This document shows positions 21,574 to 31,153 of a stretch of DNA of 32,000 bases, piece by piece. The notes under the pieces are model-generated. The model was not told where the DNA came from. It worked only from the letters and a program-made list of their open reading frames with translations, and did no database searches. A program made the position numbers and the translations under genes. The stretch's first letter is position 1. Each line of letters starts with the position of its first letter. This DNA is from Gemmata obscuriglobus. Lineage in GTDB: Bacteria; Planctomycetota; Planctomycetia; Gemmatales; Gemmataceae. The stretch is from NCBI RefSeq assembly GCF_008065095.1, contig NZ_CP042911.1, positions 6,510,001 to 6,542,000 of the forward strand, written 5' to 3'.

Positions 21574-22953
21574 GTGCGCCACGCGATCGGAGCCATCACC
21601 GCCGCGATCCTCTGCACCGCCGGAGCGGCCGGCGACGACAAGAAACCGGTCCCGAAGCCGATCACCCGGCTGTTCGTTCAGGACCTGAAGACGTGTTCGC
21701 TGAAGTGGGCGGATGTGACGGTCGGTCCCGGCCAGAGGCTCGCCCTCGGAGCGCTCGCCGATGTCACCGGCTTCAAGAAGCTCGACCCCACGCGGCAAAA
21801 GCTGGTTCAAATGCGGGAGGCGGGCAGCCTGGTGTGCGTCGGCGTGCGGGACGATGCCGACGGCGCGTTCGAGAGCGGCTGGGTGCTGATCCAGTCCGGG
21901 GTGGGGTACGCGGACCACGGGGGCCACGGTCACTGGAAATACAAGAAGAAACCCGAAGTGGCGGACAGCCGGCTCGACGCCAAACAGGGCAACCCGGCCC
22001 ACGTGTACCTGTACGGCGAGCGGTTCTTCATCGCCAACGACCGGCTCAACGGGTACACCCGGCTCGACCCCGAGCAGTACGCCACCAACGAGGCCCGGTC
22101 GCTCGGCACGGGCAAACCGCAGTTCCTCGTCGGCGGCGGGAACCACATCACGCTGGCGGTTGTTGACGACAAGGTCGGGTACTCGTGCTGGATCGACGGC
22201 GGCGGGCCGAACAAGGGCCGCGTCGACGTGACTCCCGTTACCGGCGCGCCGAAATCCGAACCGGCGTACTCGTTCACCCTGCCCAGCGGCGGCATCCACG
22301 GCGCGACCGCGTGCGCCGGTAAGGTGTTCTTCGCTCCGGCCGAAGGGGTCTGCTGGGTCGAAGCCGACCCCGGGCTGAAACAAAAGTCCGAGCAGGTGAA
22401 GACGCGGCAGATCGACCTCGGCAAAGAGGGCGGTAAGGCGCGTCGCACCGGCGCGTTCGCGACCCACGGGGACCACGTCCTGTTCGTCACCGGTAAAGAT
22501 GCCCCGACCCTTGTGGCACTGAACGCGAAGCTGACGGACCCGAAACCGCTGTTCGTCCCCCTCACGGTCCGGAAGGGCACACACGCGGTCACCCCAGAGG
22601 TCGTCACCGCCGCGGACGGCAAGCTGTACGCGTTGGTGTTCCACGACCGGGTGAAGGACAGCGACGCGGACGACGCGCTAGAGGTGATCGCCCTGGACCC
22701 GAACGGGGACGGCGACTGCGCCGACGCCCGATCGGTGAAGGTGCTGAAGGTCGGCAGGAGCGCCGTTGAGGGGCACTCCGGGCACCACGACATCACCTTC
22801 GACGCGGATTACCGGTACGCGTTCTTCACCAACCCGGGCGACGGCACCGTTTCGGCCCTGTCCCTCAAGACGCTGGAAGTGACCGCCACGTTCACCGTCG
22901 GCGGCACCCCGACGGCCGTCGTCGCCCGCGGCGGCGAGGACCACGACGACTGA
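21574..22953 (+). CDS. Secreted His-rich beta-propeller-like protein (YVTN-type C-terminal repeat); candidate periplasmic metal-binding protein or chaperone.
   Basis: Track ORF 21394..22953 trimmed to the GTG at 21574, which has AGAGGG 6 nt upstream. This gives the signal peptide (M)RHAIGAITAAILCTAGAAGDD. His clusters are YADHGGHGHWKYKKK and VEGHSGHHDITFD. The C-terminus FFTNPGDGTVSALSLKTLEVTATFTVGGTPTAV looks like a YVTN/lactonase-type propeller blade. Confidence 0.75.
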   Translation: MRHAIGAITAAILCTAGAAGDDKKPVPKPITRLFVQDLKTCSLKWADVTVGPGQRLALGALADVTGFKKLDPTRQKLVQMREAGSLVCVGVRDDADGAFESGWVLIQSGVGYADHGGHGHWKYKKKPEVADSRLDAKQGNPAHVYLYGERFFIANDRLNGYTRLDPEQYATNEARSLGTGKPQFLVGGGNHITLAVVDDKVGYSCWIDGGGPNKGRVDVTPVTGAPKSEPAYSFTLPSGGIHGATACAGKVFFAPAEGVCWVEADPGLKQKSEQVKTRQIDLGKEGGKARRTGAFATHGDHVLFVTGKDAPTLVALNAKLTDPKPLFVPLTVRKGTHAVTPEVVTAADGKLYALVFHDRVKDSDADDALEVIALDPNGDGDCADARSVKVLKVGRSAVEGHSGHHDITFDADYRYAFFTNPGDGTVSALSLKTLEVTATFTVGGTPTAVVARGGEDHDD

Positions 22954-22972
22954 GCACGGATCTCATCCGTGC
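22954..22972 (+). terminator. Short hairpin directly after the propeller gene stop; possible attenuator or partial terminator.
   Basis: GCACGGAT (22954..22961), loop CTC, then ATCCGTGC (22965..22972). It is followed by CCCTTCCC, with no T-tract. Confidence 0.3.
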
Positions 22973-23040
22973 CCCTTCCCGCACGACGCACCGAGCCATT
23001 CCCGAACCGAAGTTCCGACGCCTTGAGGTGAGGAGCGCCG

Positions 23041-28616: not shown

Positions 28617-29563
28617 CCGCTCTTCGCAACGTACCCCCGACCGCTCCAGCCGTACCCGACCGGGTGGACCGGTTACGGGCCGCTCTGAACCGCGCGTTGC
28701 GCGGCAAACCGGAGGTGACCGAGTACGTGCTCGCGGGCCTGCTGGCGCGCGGGCACCTGCTGCTCGAAGACCTGCCCGGGCTGGGCAAGACCACGCTGGC
28801 CAAGGCGCTCGCCGGCGCGGTCGGCGGCACGTTCGCCCGGGTGCAGTGCACGCCGGACCTGCTGCCGGGCGACATCACCGGGTTCAGCGTGTTCAACCAG
28901 AAGACCCGCGAGTTCGAGTTCCAGCCCGGCCCGGTGTTCGCCGACGTCCTCCTGACCGACGAGATCAACCGGACCACGCCCCGCACCCAGAGCGCGCTGC
29001 TGGAGGCGATGGCCGAGCGGCAGGCGACCGTGGACAACGTGCGCCACCCGCTGTCGCCGACGTTCTTCGTGATCGCCACGCAAAACCCGGTGGAGCACCA
29101 CGGCACCTACCCGCTGCCCGAGGCCCAGCTCGACCGGTTCGCAATGAAGCTGTCGATCGGGTACCCGGACCGGGCCGACGAACTCGCCCTGCTCGAAGGG
29201 GCCATTGGCGCACCGGCCGACGAAGCCGCTCCGGAACGGGTACTCGCACCCGGTGAGTTGGCGGCACTTCAGGCGCGCGTGGCCGGGGTGGCGGTACAGC
29301 CGAACGTGCGAGCGTACCTGGTGGATTTGGGCCGGGCCACCCGCGCGCACGCGAGCGTCTCCCTCGGGCTCAGCCCGCGCGGGCTGCTCACTTGGCAGCG
29401 GGTCGCCCAGGCGTGGGCGTACCTGCGCGGCCGCCCGTTCGTTACCCCGGACGACGTTCAGGAGGTCGCCCGGCCGGTGCTGGGGGTCCGCCTGGGACTC
29501 GACACCGGCGCGACGGAGCGGGTGATCCGGCAGTTGGTCGAAACGATCCCCGTTCCGGTTTGA
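28613..29563 (+). CDS. MoxR-family AAA+ ATPase (AAA_3 type).
   Basis: GTG at 28613 overlaps the upstream stop (GTGA) and has GGAGGA 6 nt upstream. Walker A is LLEDLPGLGKTTLAKALA and Walker B is VLLTDEINRTTPRTQSALLEAMAERQ. Further motifs are FFVIATQNPVEHHGTYPLPEAQLDRF and GLSPRG. Confidence 0.93.
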   Translation: MTALRNVPPTAPAVPDRVDRLRAALNRALRGKPEVTEYVLAGLLARGHLLLEDLPGLGKTTLAKALAGAVGGTFARVQCTPDLLPGDITGFSVFNQKTREFEFQPGPVFADVLLTDEINRTTPRTQSALLEAMAERQATVDNVRHPLSPTFFVIATQNPVEHHGTYPLPEAQLDRFAMKLSIGYPDRADELALLEGAIGAPADEAAPERVLAPGELAALQARVAGVAVQPNVRAYLVDLGRATRAHASVSLGLSPRGLLTWQRVAQAWAYLRGRPFVTPDDVQEVARPVLGVRLGLDTGATERVIRQLVETIPVPV

Positions 29564-29596
29564 TCCGCTCAACGTTACCGCACCAGGGAGCCGGCC

Positions 29597-31153
29597 ATGT
29601 TCGCGAGTCTGTTTTGGGGGTTCCTCCTGCGCCTGGGTCAGGGGGCCGTTGAAGCCTCGCTGACGCTGGTGGTCGGGGTGGTTGTGGCCGGGGTGCTGCG
29701 GCGCATGGTCGGCCCGGCCGGCACGCGCCGGTTGTTCGGCAGTGGGGCGAAGGGGCTGTTCCGCGGGTGGCTCGCCGGGATGCTGTTACCGGTGTGCGCG
29801 CTCGGGGTGATCCCGGTCGCCCGGGAGATGCGCCGGGCCGGGGTGCCGGGCGGTACGGTGCTGGCGTTCGTGCTCGCGGCCCCGCTCCTGAACCCGCTCT
29901 CGTTCCTGTACGGACTGACCCTCGCCGAGCCGGTGGTGATCCTCACGTTCGCCGGCCTGTCGCTGGTCGTCGCCACGTGCGCCGGGTTCCTGTGGGACCG
30001 CGTGTTCGGCCGCGGCGCGAGCGTGACCGAGGCGGAGGAGCTGGCCCGCACCGCCGACGCCGAGCCGCTCCCGGCGGCCGGGCTGCGCCGGGTCGCGGCG
30101 GTGGCGGTCACCGCCGCCAAGGAACTGGCCGGGCGCGACCTCGTGTTCTACGCGGTCGGGCTGCTCGCCTCGGCGCTACTGTCGGCGGCGATCCCGTTCG
30201 GCAGCCTCCAGCACACGATGCACCACACCGACAAATCGTCCCCGCTGCTGATGACCGCGCTGGCGGTACCGCTGTACTCGTCCCCGCTGCCGGGGATGAT
30301 GAAGATCGGCCTCATGTTCGAGCACGGCAACTCGATCGGGGCCGCGTTCGTGCTGTTCACGCTGGGCATCGGAACCAGCGCCGGGACCGTGACGTGGCTG
30401 CTGACGGACTTCGGGGGCCGCCGGGTGCTCCCCTGGCTCGGCGCCTACCTAGCCGTTGTGCTCGCCGTCGCATACGCGACGGAACCGGTCCTGTACGACA
30501 CCCGGAAAGAGGAGGCGGACCACACGCACGCGTTCGACGACTACTCGGCCCCCTTCCCTTCCGGGTCCGGCGGACCGGCCGAGGCGGGCGCGAAGCTGGC
30601 CGAGAAGTTCGGGCCGATGGAGCAGCCGGCCGTGTACGGCTTCGTTGCGCTCCTGGCTGCCGGGGTCGTGCTGCGACGCGCCGACCGGGCGGGGGCACTG
30701 GAGCGGTGGCTCACCGCGCCGCCGCCGAGCCGGGCGCGCACGCGATGGGACGCCAACGTGCCCGGCTCGGTGCTGGGAGCGGTCTCGCTGCTGGGGTTAG
30801 TCGCGTTCAGTGTGGTCGGGGCGTACCTGTACTACCCGGACCGCGAGCAGTGCTTCGAGGAGATGAAGGCCGTTCACGCGGACGCGGTCGTCGCGGCCCG
30901 GACCGGCAAACGGGACGAGGCGATCCGGCAACTGGAGCGGTGGGACTTACTGACCCGCAAGTTGCAGGTCGGCGTGTACATCCGCACGTTGCGGTTGAGC
31001 GACGAGCAGGCGCGATCGGCCGACGACCTCCGGGAACGGCTGGAAGAGGTGCGCGACGCCCTCCTGGCGAACGACGCCACCGTAGCCGAATCCGCGCTCC
31101 CGGCGCTCGAGCGGGCGTACCGCACGTGTCGCACCGCGTTCGCTCCGAATTGA
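29597..31153 (+). CDS. DUF318/ArsP_1-type (COG0701) predicted permease with a C-terminal extension of about 215 aa.
   Basis: ATG at 29597 with AGGGAG upstream. The family-typical segment is GWLAGMLLPVCALGVIPVAREMRRAGVPGGTVLAFVLAAPLLNPLSF. The second permease half is LLMTALAVPLYSSPLPGMMKIGLMFEHGNSIGAAFVLFTLGIGTS. The extension (about 30497..31153) adds two TM helices and a helical soluble tail. Confidence 0.82.
   Translation: MFASLFWGFLLRLGQGAVEASLTLVVGVVVAGVLRRMVGPAGTRRLFGSGAKGLFRGWLAGMLLPVCALGVIPVAREMRRAGVPGGTVLAFVLAAPLLNPLSFLYGLTLAEPVVILTFAGLSLVVATCAGFLWDRVFGRGASVTEAEELARTADAEPLPAAGLRRVAAVAVTAAKELAGRDLVFYAVGLLASALLSAAIPFGSLQHTMHHTDKSSPLLMTALAVPLYSSPLPGMMKIGLMFEHGNSIGAAFVLFTLGIGTSAGTVTWLLTDFGGRRVLPWLGAYLAVVLAVAYATEPVLYDTRKEEADHTHAFDDYSAPFPSGSGGPAEAGAKLAEKFGPMEQPAVYGFVALLAAGVVLRRADRAGALERWLTAPPPSRARTRWDANVPGSVLGAVSLLGLVAFSVVGAYLYYPDREQCFEEMKAVHADAVVAARTGKRDEAIRQLERWDLLTRKLQVGVYIRTLRLSDEQARSADDLRERLEEVRDALLANDATVAESALPALERAYRTCRTAFAPN

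Follow-up and report, generated by a model that had tools for sequence, protein, structure and literature searches.

A run of seven genes on one strand, preceded by a candidate operator, occupies positions 21430-31153 of the analysed Gemmata obscuriglobus window (the whole 32-kb stretch of DNA; all positions are window coordinates). Its best explanation, given about an even chance of being right, is a zinc-limitation operon whose products form a zinc-trafficking system spanning the envelope. A metal-trafficking role had been suggested in a first-pass annotation of this DNA. This metal context is strongly backed, and it is narrowed to zinc because of the ZigA equivalog score of the GTPase, the AztD-like propeller, the ZnuABC, DUF1826 and Fur neighbors, and a shared operator. 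A role in zinc supply would be the first testable one for the long-unexplained MoxR-DUF58-TgpA triad.

Organization of the Locus

The features of the locus are as follows:
21430-21456, + strand, candidate operator GTTATACTTTGTAAATACAAGTCAATC, located by weight matrix upstream of the propeller gene
21574-22953, + strand, AztD-like propeller gene, GTG start, 459 aa
22955-22973, + strand, hairpin GCACGGAT-CTC-ATCCGTGC, in the propeller-g239 intergenic spacer
23041-23760, + strand, g239 gene, 239 aa, unnamed family
23757-25007, + strand, GTPase gene, ZigA-type by score, COG0523, 416 aa
25004-26290, + strand, DUF58 gene, 428 aa
26280-28616, + strand, TgpA-like gene, 778 aa
28613-29563, + strand, moxR gene, 316 aa
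29597-31153, + strand, permease gene, ArsP_1/DUF318-type, 518 aa

The coordinates and junctions described earlier were re-derived and all hold. The g239 and GTPase genes are joined by an ATGA overlap at 23757, the GTPase and DUF58 genes by a GTGA overlap at 25004, and the TgpA-like and moxR genes by another at 28613. The DUF58 and TgpA-like genes share 11 nt, while gaps of 87 and 33 nt separate the propeller gene from the g239 gene and moxR from the permease gene, respectively. As claimed, a Shine-Dalgarno sequence of the GGAG/GAGG type is found 6-12 nt 5' of all seven starts. The hairpin downstream of the propeller gene is weak, as had been noted: its 8-bp stem is G+C-rich, a U tract is absent, and the region folds no better than shuffled sequences (z = -0.79). 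It is unlikely to act as a full terminator, and the 87-nt spacer before the g239 gene is free of operator and promoter motifs. Each product with a family call exceeds the Pfam gathering scores, and the motifs GCICC, HGGHGHW, EGHSGHHD, HTMHHTD and EADHTHAFDD are all present in the products.

The GTPase and Its Neighbor g239

The GTPase matches the Pfam families cobW (192.7 bits) and CobW_C (93.7 bits) and carries the Walker A motif GAGKTT, the GCICC motif and NKADL. It reaches 617.6 bits against the NCBIfam ZigA equivalog (cut-off 600) and stays below the respective cut-offs of the CobW, HypB and UreG models. By its equivalog score, it scores as a putative ZigA-type zinc chaperone. The adjoining g239 encodes a basic, cytoplasmic protein of 239 aa without a match in Pfam or NCBIfam, and its AlphaFold2 model (pLDDT 86.4) matched no PDB fold. 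It has 82 close homologues, and its family comprises 1,110 representatives at 50% identity (E <= 0.001). The gene adjoins a ZigA-like GTPase gene in 27 of 42 genome loci; g239 is the founder of an unnamed family adjoining COG0523 GTPases across the Planctomycetota.

The Propeller Resembles AztD

The first gene encodes a secreted beta-propeller, whose N-terminus agrees with the starts of its orthologues. AztD accounts for the best nine PDB fold matches of its AlphaFold2 model (pLDDT 90.1), with E-values of 1.7e-15 to 3e-13 and target-normalised TM-scores of 0.73-0.77; the match after these is at 2.5e-8. The family profile finds AztD 6ck1 with an E-value of 2.2e-4. AztD is a periplasmic zinc chaperone, which hands zinc to the transporter of its own operon, and its zinc ligands include H99, H102 and D104 of site 2 together with H124 (PMC6689063). 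The HGxHxH motif of the propeller aligns with this site (H99-G-x-H102-x-D104) and its H143 with H124, the fold and the positions of the site-2 HGxH and H124 being common to both proteins. Residues H115, H118, H120, H143, H191, H242, H401, H404 and H405 are invariant among 22 sequences. Alignment and fold model point to a remote AztD homologue and a candidate periplasmic zinc chaperone.

The DUF58-TgpA-MoxR-Permease Proteins

According to a topology estimate, the DUF58 protein (Pfam DUF58, 47.8 bits) crosses the membrane twice near its N-terminus and carries a vWA-like domain in the cytoplasm. In the alignment, its MIDAS position reads LDANP, which is non-canonical, and a CPVC...CGAC cluster is seen in Gemmataceae only.

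The TgpA-like protein is estimated to have about seven membrane helices, then a periplasmic domain of 432 aa that includes a transglutaminase-like core; another membrane helix leads to a cytoplasmic tail rich in Arg. Its earlier assignment stands for the core (Transglut_core, 51.2 bits), but a canonical transglutaminase was rejected, as the catalytic Cys is missing. The family profile aligns with Pseudomonas aeruginosa TgpA (6G49, E 5e-10), the Cys falling opposite Asp and the Asp opposite Glu; Asp552-His598-Glu614 takes the place of the catalytic Cys-His-Asp. These three residues are invariant in 11 sequences with identities down to 26%.

MoxR (AAA_3, 203.9 bits; AAA_lid_2, 76.2 bits), with Walker A GLPGLGKT and Walker B LLTDEINR, is 61-81% identical in all module loci. 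The permease (ArsP_1, 79.9 bits) contains an LPVC(S/A)LG helix and, directly past the family core, an HTHAFD motif; it also has two more membrane helices and a C-terminal helical domain of ~100 aa. It falls far under the cut-offs of the SaoE (77.5 bits) and SO_0444 (63.4 bits) subfamily models, and no relative of its sequence was found in the PDB. Two permease motifs had been read as metal-ligand signatures: of the 55 full-length orthologues from metagenomes, 53 retain HTHAFD and one has HSHAFD, but HTMHHTD is unconserved. On the strength of conservation, D552/H598/E614 and HTHAFD are candidate metal ligands.

Conservation of the Gene Neighborhood

The fixed module, DUF58-TgpA-like-MoxR-permease, was collected from 64 dereplicated metagenome loci. 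Its order is the same in 36 of the 41 untruncated ones and in L010, L022, L032 and L048-L051; the permuted gene order noticed in the first-pass annotation is a constant feature of the clade. The GTPase-DUF58 adjacency is not unique to G. obscuriglobus. It recurs in other Gemmataceae (L007, L010, L066, L096, L097 and L105), and the association is found with altered gene orders in distant Planctomycetota (L022, L032, L131 and L050). In L022, L032 and L131, it is kept with DUF58 and TgpA-like proteins merely 26-33% identical. The gene arrangement is neither chance nor peculiar to this genome.

For 24 module loci, the sequence extends 5 kb or more upstream, and zinc markers (ZnuABC, COG0523, AztD-like protein, DUF1826 and Fur) occur in 15 of them. 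About a third of the long-flank module loci (L055, L077, L100, L102, L117, L118 and L130) have no zinc genes near the module. A COG0523 GTPase is present in the flanks (up to ~10 kb) of 13 of the 24 loci and within 300 nt of the module in three. The GTPase had been proposed as an operon partner; its adjacency does recur, but on these counts it is a frequent neighbor and not an obligatory part. The core unit is DUF58-TgpA-like-MoxR-permease, to which the AztD-like propeller is often added, its gene abutting the module in L049, L051, L091, L092, L094 and L126.

Several arrangements combine the module with zinc genes. In L060, L093 and L095, znuABC-DUF1826-ZigA-x90-x137-cobW2-WD40-DUF58-TgpA-MoxR-permease lie on one strand. 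The module of L048 runs divergently from znuABC-g239-cobW, and the ZnuA there has a His/Asp/Glu-rich loop (HAPAERSEPHEHEDDPHVWHD), which is typical of zinc-specific members. Botrimarina (L032) has a Fur-family gene between the permease and ZigA genes, and in L131 the TgpA-like gene and moxR are separated by the GTPase and g239 genes. The organisms of L012, L055 and L108 also have canonical paralogues of moxR and tgpA. A 276-aa neighbor in L049 shows a weak TRASH/YHS match.

A Shared Candidate Operator

The operator type of Gemmataceae, to which it is restricted, is GTATTAC-N3-GTAATAC. For the weight matrix, built with this locus excluded, sites were first aligned by hand, and the operator was then tested on held-out loci. 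The candidate site at 21430-21456, with heptamers phased at 10 bp, has the highest score of the 32-kb window, 20.4 bits (next independent site 8.4), a value that none of 200 block shuffles reached. It overlaps a promoter identified by eye (TTGCAG 21418-21423, 17-nt spacer, TAAATA 21441-21446); a consensus scan called no promoter.

In other loci, the same operator is found upstream of znuA, COG0523 genes (cobW2), g239 and duf58, and of a cation-efflux (CDF) gene in L050. Among the genomes held out, L049, L050 and L051 have it as their best match immediately 5' of the module operon, and many four-gene modules are standalone, each with its own copy. Of 26 dereplicated loci, 13 have a copy no more than 350 nt 5' of duf58 (background 0.059 sites per kb, binomial P ~1e-15); in some loci, none was found upstream of duf58. 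As a predicted site, this candidate operator is common to znuABC, COG0523 genes and the module in Gemmataceae.

A Zinc-Limitation Model and Its Alternatives

When zinc is sufficient, a repressor (Fur-family Zur or another zinc sensor) would sit on the operator, which would likewise govern znuABC and other COG0523 genes. When zinc is scarce, the secreted propeller would be produced, bind Zn(II) in the periplasm and pass it to the co-encoded membrane module, received by the TgpA-like periplasmic domain, with its Asp-His-Glu former active site, and the HTHAFD permease. The latter would move zinc through the inner membrane, more likely inward. A cytoplasmic MoxR hexamer, working via the vWA-like DUF58 adaptor, may spend ATP on assembling, gating or loading/unloading the membrane complex, as MoxR/vWA pairs do at other metal centers. 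The ZigA-type GTPase and its presumed partner g239 would receive the zinc in the cytoplasm and allocate it to client proteins. We infer both the single device and the import. Less in line with this model are the module loci that lack zinc genes nearby, the exporter function of SaoE, SO_0444 and ArsP, to which the permease is closest among named subfamilies, the non-canonical DUF58 MIDAS and an operator that is confined to Gemmataceae and missing before some duf58 genes.

MoxR/vWA pairs such as NorQD and CoxDE mature metal centers, and related AAA+/vWA pairs (BchI/D, CobS/T) drive Mg- and Co-chelatases. Elsewhere, the MoxR-DUF58-TgpA triad has been connected with envelope integrity and viability and not with metals. 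No paper linking COG0523 or Zur to MoxR or DUF58 emerged from the literature search. The claim that a COG0523 GTPase with this triad had not been described agrees with the literature searched, but overlooked CobW with CobNST, the classical case of such a GTPase alongside an AAA+/vWA pair.

With the same parts and zinc regulon, the permease could instead export zinc from cytoplasmic ZigA, and under scarcity the TgpA-like domain and the propeller would supply it to zinc enzymes that are periplasmic or secreted, a bacterial parallel to the way the eukaryotic secretory pathway is loaded with zinc. Among named families, those closest to the permease are efflux transporters, ArsP, the founding member, is an exporter, the L050 CDF gene shares the operator, and the periplasm of Planctomycetes is large and enzyme-rich. 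However, the similarity to SaoE and SO_0444 is weak, exporting a scarce metal during starvation would be costly, the module clusters and is co-regulated with the importer ZnuABC, and AztD in the known system supplies an importer (PMC6689063); reversed transport appears unlikely. It is decidedly improbable that the module serves envelope maintenance or protein remodelling, like other triads, and was recruited into a zinc-starvation regulon, adjusting envelope or membrane proteins, with a permease of non-zinc cargo and a GTPase that is only a co-regulated neighbor. Reviews do treat MoxR/DUF58/transglutaminase operons without a metal role, the GTPase is missing from the flanks of 11 of 24 loci, and canonical paralogues coexist with the module. 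Yet a role as transglutaminase or protease is hard to reconcile with the clade-wide loss of the catalytic Cys, both HTHAFD and Asp-His-Glu consist of residues typical of metal binding, the module itself is closely accompanied by the AztD-like gene, and GTPase and g239 genes lie inside it in L131.

That Co, Ni, Fe, Mn or Cu is handled and not zinc is very unlikely. More than one metal is served within each of the COG0523, ZnuA-type binding-protein and Fur regulator families, SO_0444 carries a Cu/Zn transporter annotation, and the TRASH/YHS match would fit as well; against this stand the ZigA score with failure of the CobW, HypB and UreG models, both conserved AztD zinc-site motifs, the L048 ZnuA loop and DUF1826, a Zur-regulon family (PMC2770081). 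A meaningless packing of unrelated genes, for which the finding of close GTPase-DUF58 pairs (within 300 nt) in only three of 24 dereplicated metagenome loci might speak, is highly improbable, as the association recurs in varied gene orders among the divergent loci and the operator is shared (P ~1e-15).

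Operon Organization

Seven + strand genes extend from position 21574 to position 31153:

21574–22953 (+): beta-propeller protein, AztD-like
23041–23760 (+): g239, an unnamed 239-aa protein family (GobsT_55680)
23757–25007 (+): COG0523 GTPase
25004–26290 (+): DUF58 protein
26280–28616 (+): TgpA-like membrane protein
28613–29563 (+): MoxR AAA+ ATPase
29597–31153 (+): ArsP_1 permease

The junctions consist of an 87-nt gap between the propeller gene and g239, an ATGA overlap at 23757, a GTGA overlap at 25004, an 11-nt overlap at 26280–26290, another GTGA overlap at 28613 and a 33-nt gap before the permease gene. 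All seven starts are preceded by a ribosome-binding site of the GGAG/GAGG type. The junctions and Shine–Dalgarno sites reported in the first-pass annotation were borne out on re-reading of the sequence. Its family assignments were upheld by a profile search, in which cobW/CobW_C, DUF58, Transglut_core, AAA_3 and ArsP_1 all scored above the Pfam gathering scores.

The 87-nt spacer contains a hairpin (22955–22973) with an 8-bp stem and no U tract, which is not significant against shuffles and whose sequence is not conserved either. Since this hairpin is unremarkable and no operator or promoter motif was found in the spacer, the propeller gene is probably the first gene of the operon. A sigma-70 scan of the window found no promoter, and the frequency of terminator-like sites in the window does not exceed that in shuffles.

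A Distant AztD-Like Propeller

The propeller has no Pfam match, and searches against PDB sequences with the single sequence or a 5-sequence profile returned nothing useful. Its relationship to AztD was revealed only by a 22-sequence profile and a fold search. The AlphaFold2 model, built from 22 homologues (pLDDT 90.1), has the beta-propeller fold of AztD. The nine best PDB fold matches identified by Foldseek are all AztD chains (E 1.7e-15 to 3e-13; target-normalised TM-score 0.73–0.77), and the next match follows at 2.5e-8. At the sequence level, the family profile matches the AztD entries 6ck1 (E 2.2e-4) and 6cmk (8e-3).

In AztD, site 2 is formed by H99, H102, D104 and the C-terminal His, and site 1 by H124, H167 and H218 (PMC6689063). 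The profile alignment places H115-G-x-H118-x-H120 of the propeller on H99-G100-x-H102-x-D104 of site 2, and H143 on the site-1 ligand H124. H191 and H242 are, from their spacing only, the putative counterparts of H167 and H218. H115, H118, H120, H143, H191 and H242 are invariant in the 22 sequences; H457, near the C-terminus, is not. An extra invariant GHxGHH cluster is found at residues 401–405, for which we know of no counterpart. The NCBIfam AztD model gave 16.3 bits against a cut-off of 400, and none of the AztABC genes is present in the operon. The most fitting description of the propeller family is distantly AztD-like. Elsewhere in its genome, G. obscuriglobus encodes a further AztD-like paralogue with 77% identity (P0213, GobsT_32880).

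A ZigA-Type GTPase and Its Partner Family

The GTPase matches Pfam cobW with 192.7 bits (cut-off 20.7) and CobW_C with 93.7 bits (cut-off 22). Its translation contains the motifs GAGKTT, GCICC, ESTG and NKADL, of which GCICC corresponds to the CxCC metal-binding motif. The score against the NCBIfam ZigA equivalog (617.6 bits) exceeds the threshold of 600, whereas the CobW, MRF, HypB and UreG models all remain under their cut-offs (145.3 vs 332.1 bits for the CobW equivalog).

No Pfam match was found for g239, and its model (pLDDT 86.4) has no relative among the PDB folds. There are 82 close homologues and 1,110 representatives at 50% identity (E <= 0.001). A 19-sequence alignment (A1) contained no stretch conserved enough for a locus scan, and a closer set (A2) was used. 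Apart from one Rubrobacter, the 42 g239 genome loci belong to Gemmataceae, Pirellulales and Planctomycetales. A ZigA-like GTPase adjoins g239 in 27 of these loci, and both genes often occur in two copies per locus. Judged by this adjacency, g239 is a COG0523 partner family. The locus of P0078, a distant g239 homologue, contains no GTPase and no zinc genes.

Another homologue, P0071 (314 aa), is an apparent chimera, in which the g239 core continues directly as the central and C-terminal portions of a cobW GTPase; it could have arisen by deletion or fusion, or be an artefact of assembly. In Rubrobacter taiwanensis, an actinobacterial g239 homologue is located near znuABC, ~570 nt downstream of a Fur-box-like palindrome:

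L014:9396–9426: TAATGATAACAATTTATCATTTATATC

Based on this locus, the link of g239 to zinc may extend beyond Planctomycetota.

The DUF58-TgpA-MoxR-Permease Module

The DUF58 domain (PF01882) scored 47.8 bits, against a gathering score of 23.4. The MIDAS motif DxSxS is replaced by LDANP, LDTDP or LDTQS in six orthologues, although MIDAS is perhaps not defining for DUF58. At residues ~350–400, a CPVC...H-x-AACGAC...HACDH cluster is conserved in Gemmataceae and missing from two distant orthologues (loci L022 and L032); the cytoplasmic domain may here carry an insert resembling a zinc ribbon. Based on topology estimates from hydropathy and the positive-inside rule, the large DUF58 domain would be cytoplasmic, on the same side as MoxR.

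MoxR matches AAA_3 (203.9 bits) and AAA_lid_2 (76.2 bits), with intact Walker A (GLPGLGKT) and Walker B (LLTDEINR) motifs. Its vWA-type partner, DUF58, is encoded in the operon of MoxR at all module loci examined. A relationship to the MoxR-vWA-beta-propeller conflict systems was rejected because bpMoxR, the Pfam model for these ternary systems, gave 23 bits, under its gathering score of 27. A WD40 beta-propeller gene, placed between duf58 and cobW2 (a long COG0523 paralogue with a His-rich insert), was observed at L006:14988–16001, L048:13598–14635 and many metagenome loci (L053, L057, L058, L060, L093). This gene ahead of duf58 recalls the ternary systems; no such gene is present in the window.

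The Transglut_core domain of the TgpA-like protein (51.2 bits vs 23) lies within a polytopic membrane protein, and a search with the family profile retrieves P. aeruginosa TgpA (6G49) through its periplasmic domain (E 5e-10). In this alignment, the catalytic Cys is replaced by Asp552, the His is kept as His598, and the Asp is replaced by Glu614, so that the Cys-His-Asp triad is missing. Asp552, His598 and Glu614 are invariant in 11 TgpA-like sequences, down to 26% identity. The protein is homologous to the transglutaminase-like cysteine enzymes, without being a canonical member of that family. Its 432-aa domain (residues ~212–643) is predicted to be periplasmic, and its Arg-rich C-terminal tail, with 19 Lys/Arg vs 6 Asp/Glu, cytoplasmic.

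The permease belongs to ArsP_1 (PF03773; 79.9 bits vs 32.3). It scored far below the subfamily thresholds of SaoE (77.5 vs 325 bits) and SO_0444 (63.4 vs 300 bits), and has no relative among PDB sequences. HTHAFD directly follows the ArsP_1 core and is found in 53/55 full-length orthologues from independent metagenome loci, one more having HSHAFD. The HTMHHTD loop, listed in the first-pass annotation as a metal-ligand-like signature of the permease, is not conserved among orthologues.

Candidate Zinc Operators

In these high-G+C genomes, the cluster genes are preceded by AT-rich islands that contain 10-bp-phased heptamers with the core GTATTAC-N3-GTAATAC. The strict pattern GTWWWACNNNGTWWWAC, with one mismatch allowed, has no match in the window because the site there is degenerate, so a weight matrix was needed (27 nt, 14 hand-aligned sites, applied leave-one-locus-out). 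The best site in the window, ahead of the propeller gene, is:

21430–21456: candidate operator, 20.4 bits

The next independent site scores 8.4, and none of 200 block shuffles reached the score of the best one. In five loci outside the training set (L012, L013, L049, L050, L051), the top match lies just upstream of the relevant operon. The L012 site is a perfect GTATTACTTAGTAATAC; for L049, L050 and L051, the score was reached by 1/100, 0/100 and 0/100 shuffles, respectively. Among 26 dereplicated Gemmataceae-like metagenome loci, 13 have a site scoring 15 bits or more no further than 350 nt upstream of duf58, which at a background of 0.059 sites per kb corresponds to a binomial P of ~1e-15.

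The motif was also found ahead of znuA, cobW2, g239 and the DUF1826 gene. This common operator suggests, from sequence analysis only, that the module belongs to the regulon of the zinc importer. At L050:5461–6126, a short gene for a 199-aa cation-efflux (CDF) protein lies behind the strongest operator match of that locus (26.7 bits), so the regulon may also include an exporter.

The Gemmataceae matrix gave no meaningful matches in Pirellulales and Planctomycetales loci. Upstream of GTPase, g239 or fur genes, the non-Gemmataceae loci have rare clusters of the TTGCAAT-N3-ATTGCAA type (15 clusters in 1.74 Mb), which are candidate Zur boxes of these two orders:

TTGCAA-based palindromes in Pirellulales and Planctomycetales
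L017:6586–6608
L019:5887–5909
L022:7829–7862
L032:7117–7150 and 19489–19505
L033:7052–7085
L034:5266–5282
L045:6672–6688
L122:5115–5147

The Zur box predicted for Desulfovibrio has the same 7-3-7 layout as both operator types (PMC545781).

A ~120-aa protein is encoded in or beside several zinc clusters:

L048:15543–15926 (-)
L011:18461–18838
L057:14930–15289
L099:12203–12538 (-)

Its N-terminal part is a ribbon-helix-helix segment (weak Pfam RHH_1 match, E 0.0085), and six of its cysteines are conserved (CPLC...CxxC...CxxC). The two best-scoring operator matches in L099 (39.0 and 27.2 bits) fall between its gene and g239. Instead of a Fur-family Zur, this protein may be the zinc-sensing repressor that acts on the phased-heptamer operator.

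Conservation of the Gene Neighborhood

The window order g239-GTPase-DUF58-TgpA-MoxR-permease also occurs in L007 and L010, so the GTPase-DUF58 association proposed in the first-pass annotation is not confined to this genome. In L006 (Gemmata algarum), x90-cobW2-WD40 is found between the GTPase and DUF58 genes (x90, x117 and x137 denote neighbor genes of the comparison loci). In L048, the module is divergent from znuA-znuC-znuB-g239-cobW-x90-cobW2-WD40, and in L022, a Planctomycetaceae MAG, from an oxidoreductase-g239-g239-GTPase operon. In L032 (Botrimarina), the gene after the module encodes a Fur-family protein (Pfam FUR, E 2.5e-15) and is read from the other strand; GTPase-oxidoreductase-g239-GTPase comes next. 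The DUF58 and TgpA-like proteins of L022 and L032 are only 26–33% identical to those of the window, which indicates that the linkage is old or was repeatedly rebuilt.

A reverse survey of complete genomes and metagenomes started from the TgpA-like protein. The same four-gene module was recovered in complete genomes: L049 (Limnoglobus) has the order DUF1559-PQQ propeller-AztD-like-276 aa-module, L050 (Frigoriglobus) CDF-...-x137-like-cobW2-module, and in L051 an AztD-like gene immediately follows the module. The metagenome scan identified 80 loci, which dereplicate to 64 groups; 41 of these are untruncated, and 36 of the 41 have the complete module in unchanged order. Where 5 kb or more of upstream sequence is available (24 groups), a zinc marker is present in 15 and a COG0523 gene in 13, lying <300 nt from the module in three. 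About one third of the long-flank groups have no zinc gene nearby. Single-strand clusters znuABC-DUF1826-ZigA-x90-x137-cobW2-WD40-DUF58-TgpA-MoxR-permease were found in L060, L093 and L095.

Some loci show further variation. The 276-aa protein of L049 (7886–8716), with a weak C-terminal TRASH/YHS metal-binding match, is encoded between the AztD-like gene and duf58, a position held in the window by g239 and the GTPase. In L131 (8003–19084), a ZigA-like GTPase and g239 lie inside the module, between the TgpA-like gene and moxR, and in L068 the permease gene is ahead of moxR. An ArsR/SmtB-type HTH_5 gene at L048:14739–15499 (-), also present in L057, L058, L071 and L120, is paired with x117, which encodes an extremely His/Cys-rich protein of 117 aa; the pair sits in zinc islands between the ZigA and cobW2 genes.

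Comparison with Known Systems

The clearest precedent is the aerobic cobaltochelatase CobNST, where the COG0523 GTPase CobW is encoded with the AAA+ protein CobS and the vWA protein CobT for metal insertion. The combination of GTPase, AAA+ and vWA proteins is the same, the resemblance being in working logic only. In contrast to CobNST, the Gemmata operon has no tetrapyrrole substrate, its parts are membrane-bound and come with a permease and a putative periplasmic chaperone, and zinc, not cobalt, is the predicted metal. No CobN-type large subunit was matched among the operon products. The MoxR/vWA pairs NorQ/NorD, CoxD/CoxE and CbbQ/CbbO mature metal centers, with a proposed ATP-driven insertion or remodelling at the metal site. 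They share the MoxR AAA+ ATPase and vWA-type adaptor, but the Gemmata adaptor is a membrane-anchored DUF58 protein without canonical MIDAS, and no oxidoreductase client gene is found nearby.

To our knowledge, no function has been established for the classical MoxR-DUF58-TgpA triad. Compared with P. aeruginosa PA2873-PA2875 (including the TgpA of structure 6G49), the mycobacterial moxR1 operon and the Bacteroides Bat operon, the Gemmata module has the same three families, a periplasmic transglutaminase-like domain in the TgpA-like membrane protein, and a cytoplasmic AAA+ protein with vWA-like partner. MoxR comes first in those operons, whereas the Gemmata module is ordered DUF58-TgpA-MoxR with a fourth fixed gene, the ArsP_1 permease; it also has Asp-His-Glu for the catalytic Cys-His-Asp and belongs to the candidate zinc regulon. 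The permease shares its Pfam family (PF03773) and a conserved LPVCSLG helix with ArsP, SaoE and SO_0444. Unlike these, the clade of the module has HTHAFD, two extra membrane helices and a C-terminal helical domain, and its gene directly follows moxR, with L068 as the exception.

In AztABCD of Paracoccus denitrificans and Citrobacter koseri, a secreted beta-propeller is likewise encoded in the operon of a membrane transport system (PMC6689063). The HGxH of AztD site 2 aligns with that of the Gemmata propeller, which also has putative counterparts of the pore histidines, but Asp104 is replaced by His and the invariant GHxGHH cluster is added. Instead of the ABC transporter AztABC, the partner is the DUF58-TgpA-like-MoxR-permease module. 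ZnuA, Fur and CobW are common neighbors of the AztD family at large; MoxR, DUF58, transglutaminase or ArsP genes are not mentioned in the AztD paper (PMC6689063). Zur-regulated COG0523 clusters (ZigA, ZagA/YciC; PMC2770081) also resemble the Gemmata arrangement, in which a ZigA-type GTPase is clustered and apparently co-regulated with ZnuABC and DUF1826, with a Fur-family gene in Botrimarina; the operator sequence and g239 as a partner family are new. The COG0523 survey describes no AAA+, MoxR, vWA, DUF58, transglutaminase or permease partners (PMC2770081). Our literature search found no meaningful link between COG0523 and MoxR, between Zur and MoxR in a zinc system, or between DUF58 and zinc or Zur.

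Proposed Function

Comparative sequence analysis ties each part of the operon to zinc, by homology (ZigA, AztD-like), neighborhood (ZnuABC, DUF1826, Fur) or a common operator. It also defines a fixed DUF58-TgpA-like-MoxR-permease module in which the cysteine chemistry is lost and candidate metal ligands are conserved. It is conceivable, though in our estimation rather unlikely, that the module represents a new class of metal transport and insertion machine. An AAA+ motor and its vWA adaptor would drive zinc among an AztD-like chaperone, an Asp-His-Glu pseudo-transglutaminase site, a DUF318-type permease with HTHAFD, and a COG0523 GTPase with its dedicated partner g239. Our preferred reading, held at about even odds, is a zinc-limitation operon in which zinc would pass from the propeller to the Asp-His-Glu domain in the periplasm and to the permease, MoxR would power assembly, gating or metal transfer via DUF58, and ZigA and g239 would manage zinc on the cytoplasmic side.

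Transport would more probably be directed inward; export for periplasmic metallation, using the same chaperone and permease, is a less likely alternative. Also less likely is an envelope-maintenance role that was co-opted into the regulon, against which the loss of the catalytic Cys speaks. A metal other than zinc is unlikely, the ZigA assignment pointing to zinc. Coincidence is the least likely alternative, in view of the operator enrichment ahead of duf58.

If the zinc machine is real, the widespread MoxR-DUF58-TgpA triad would for the first time have a molecular function, and a ZigA-type chaperone its first membrane client. Operons of this triad occur without assigned function in many bacterial phyla, pathogens included. 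Here, a clade tied to a candidate zinc regulon has lost the Cys and acquired a permease together with a putative zinc chaperone of the periplasm, which makes for a specific hypothesis on this orphan that can be put to the test. The clients of ZigA-type COG0523 proteins are largely unknown; the module as a membrane partner and g239 (~1,100 clusters at 50% identity) are new candidates. Candidate AztD-like chaperones are here paired with a non-ABC membrane system. The candidate zinc operators, one for Gemmataceae and a second for other Planctomycetota, concern a phylum whose metal regulation is essentially uncharted.

Remainder of the Window

The other genes of the window encode DUF1559 proteins, PEPCK, a glycogen-branching-type amylase, succinate dehydrogenase, a tricorn-like protease and an S9 peptidase, and the metal theme is missing from them. 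An AT-rich intergenic element, unrelated to the operon, is located between the PEPCK gene and a DUF1559 gene:

5766–5820: 13-nt inverted arms AAGTCGTAAAGTC ... GACTTTACGACTT, ~26 nt apart
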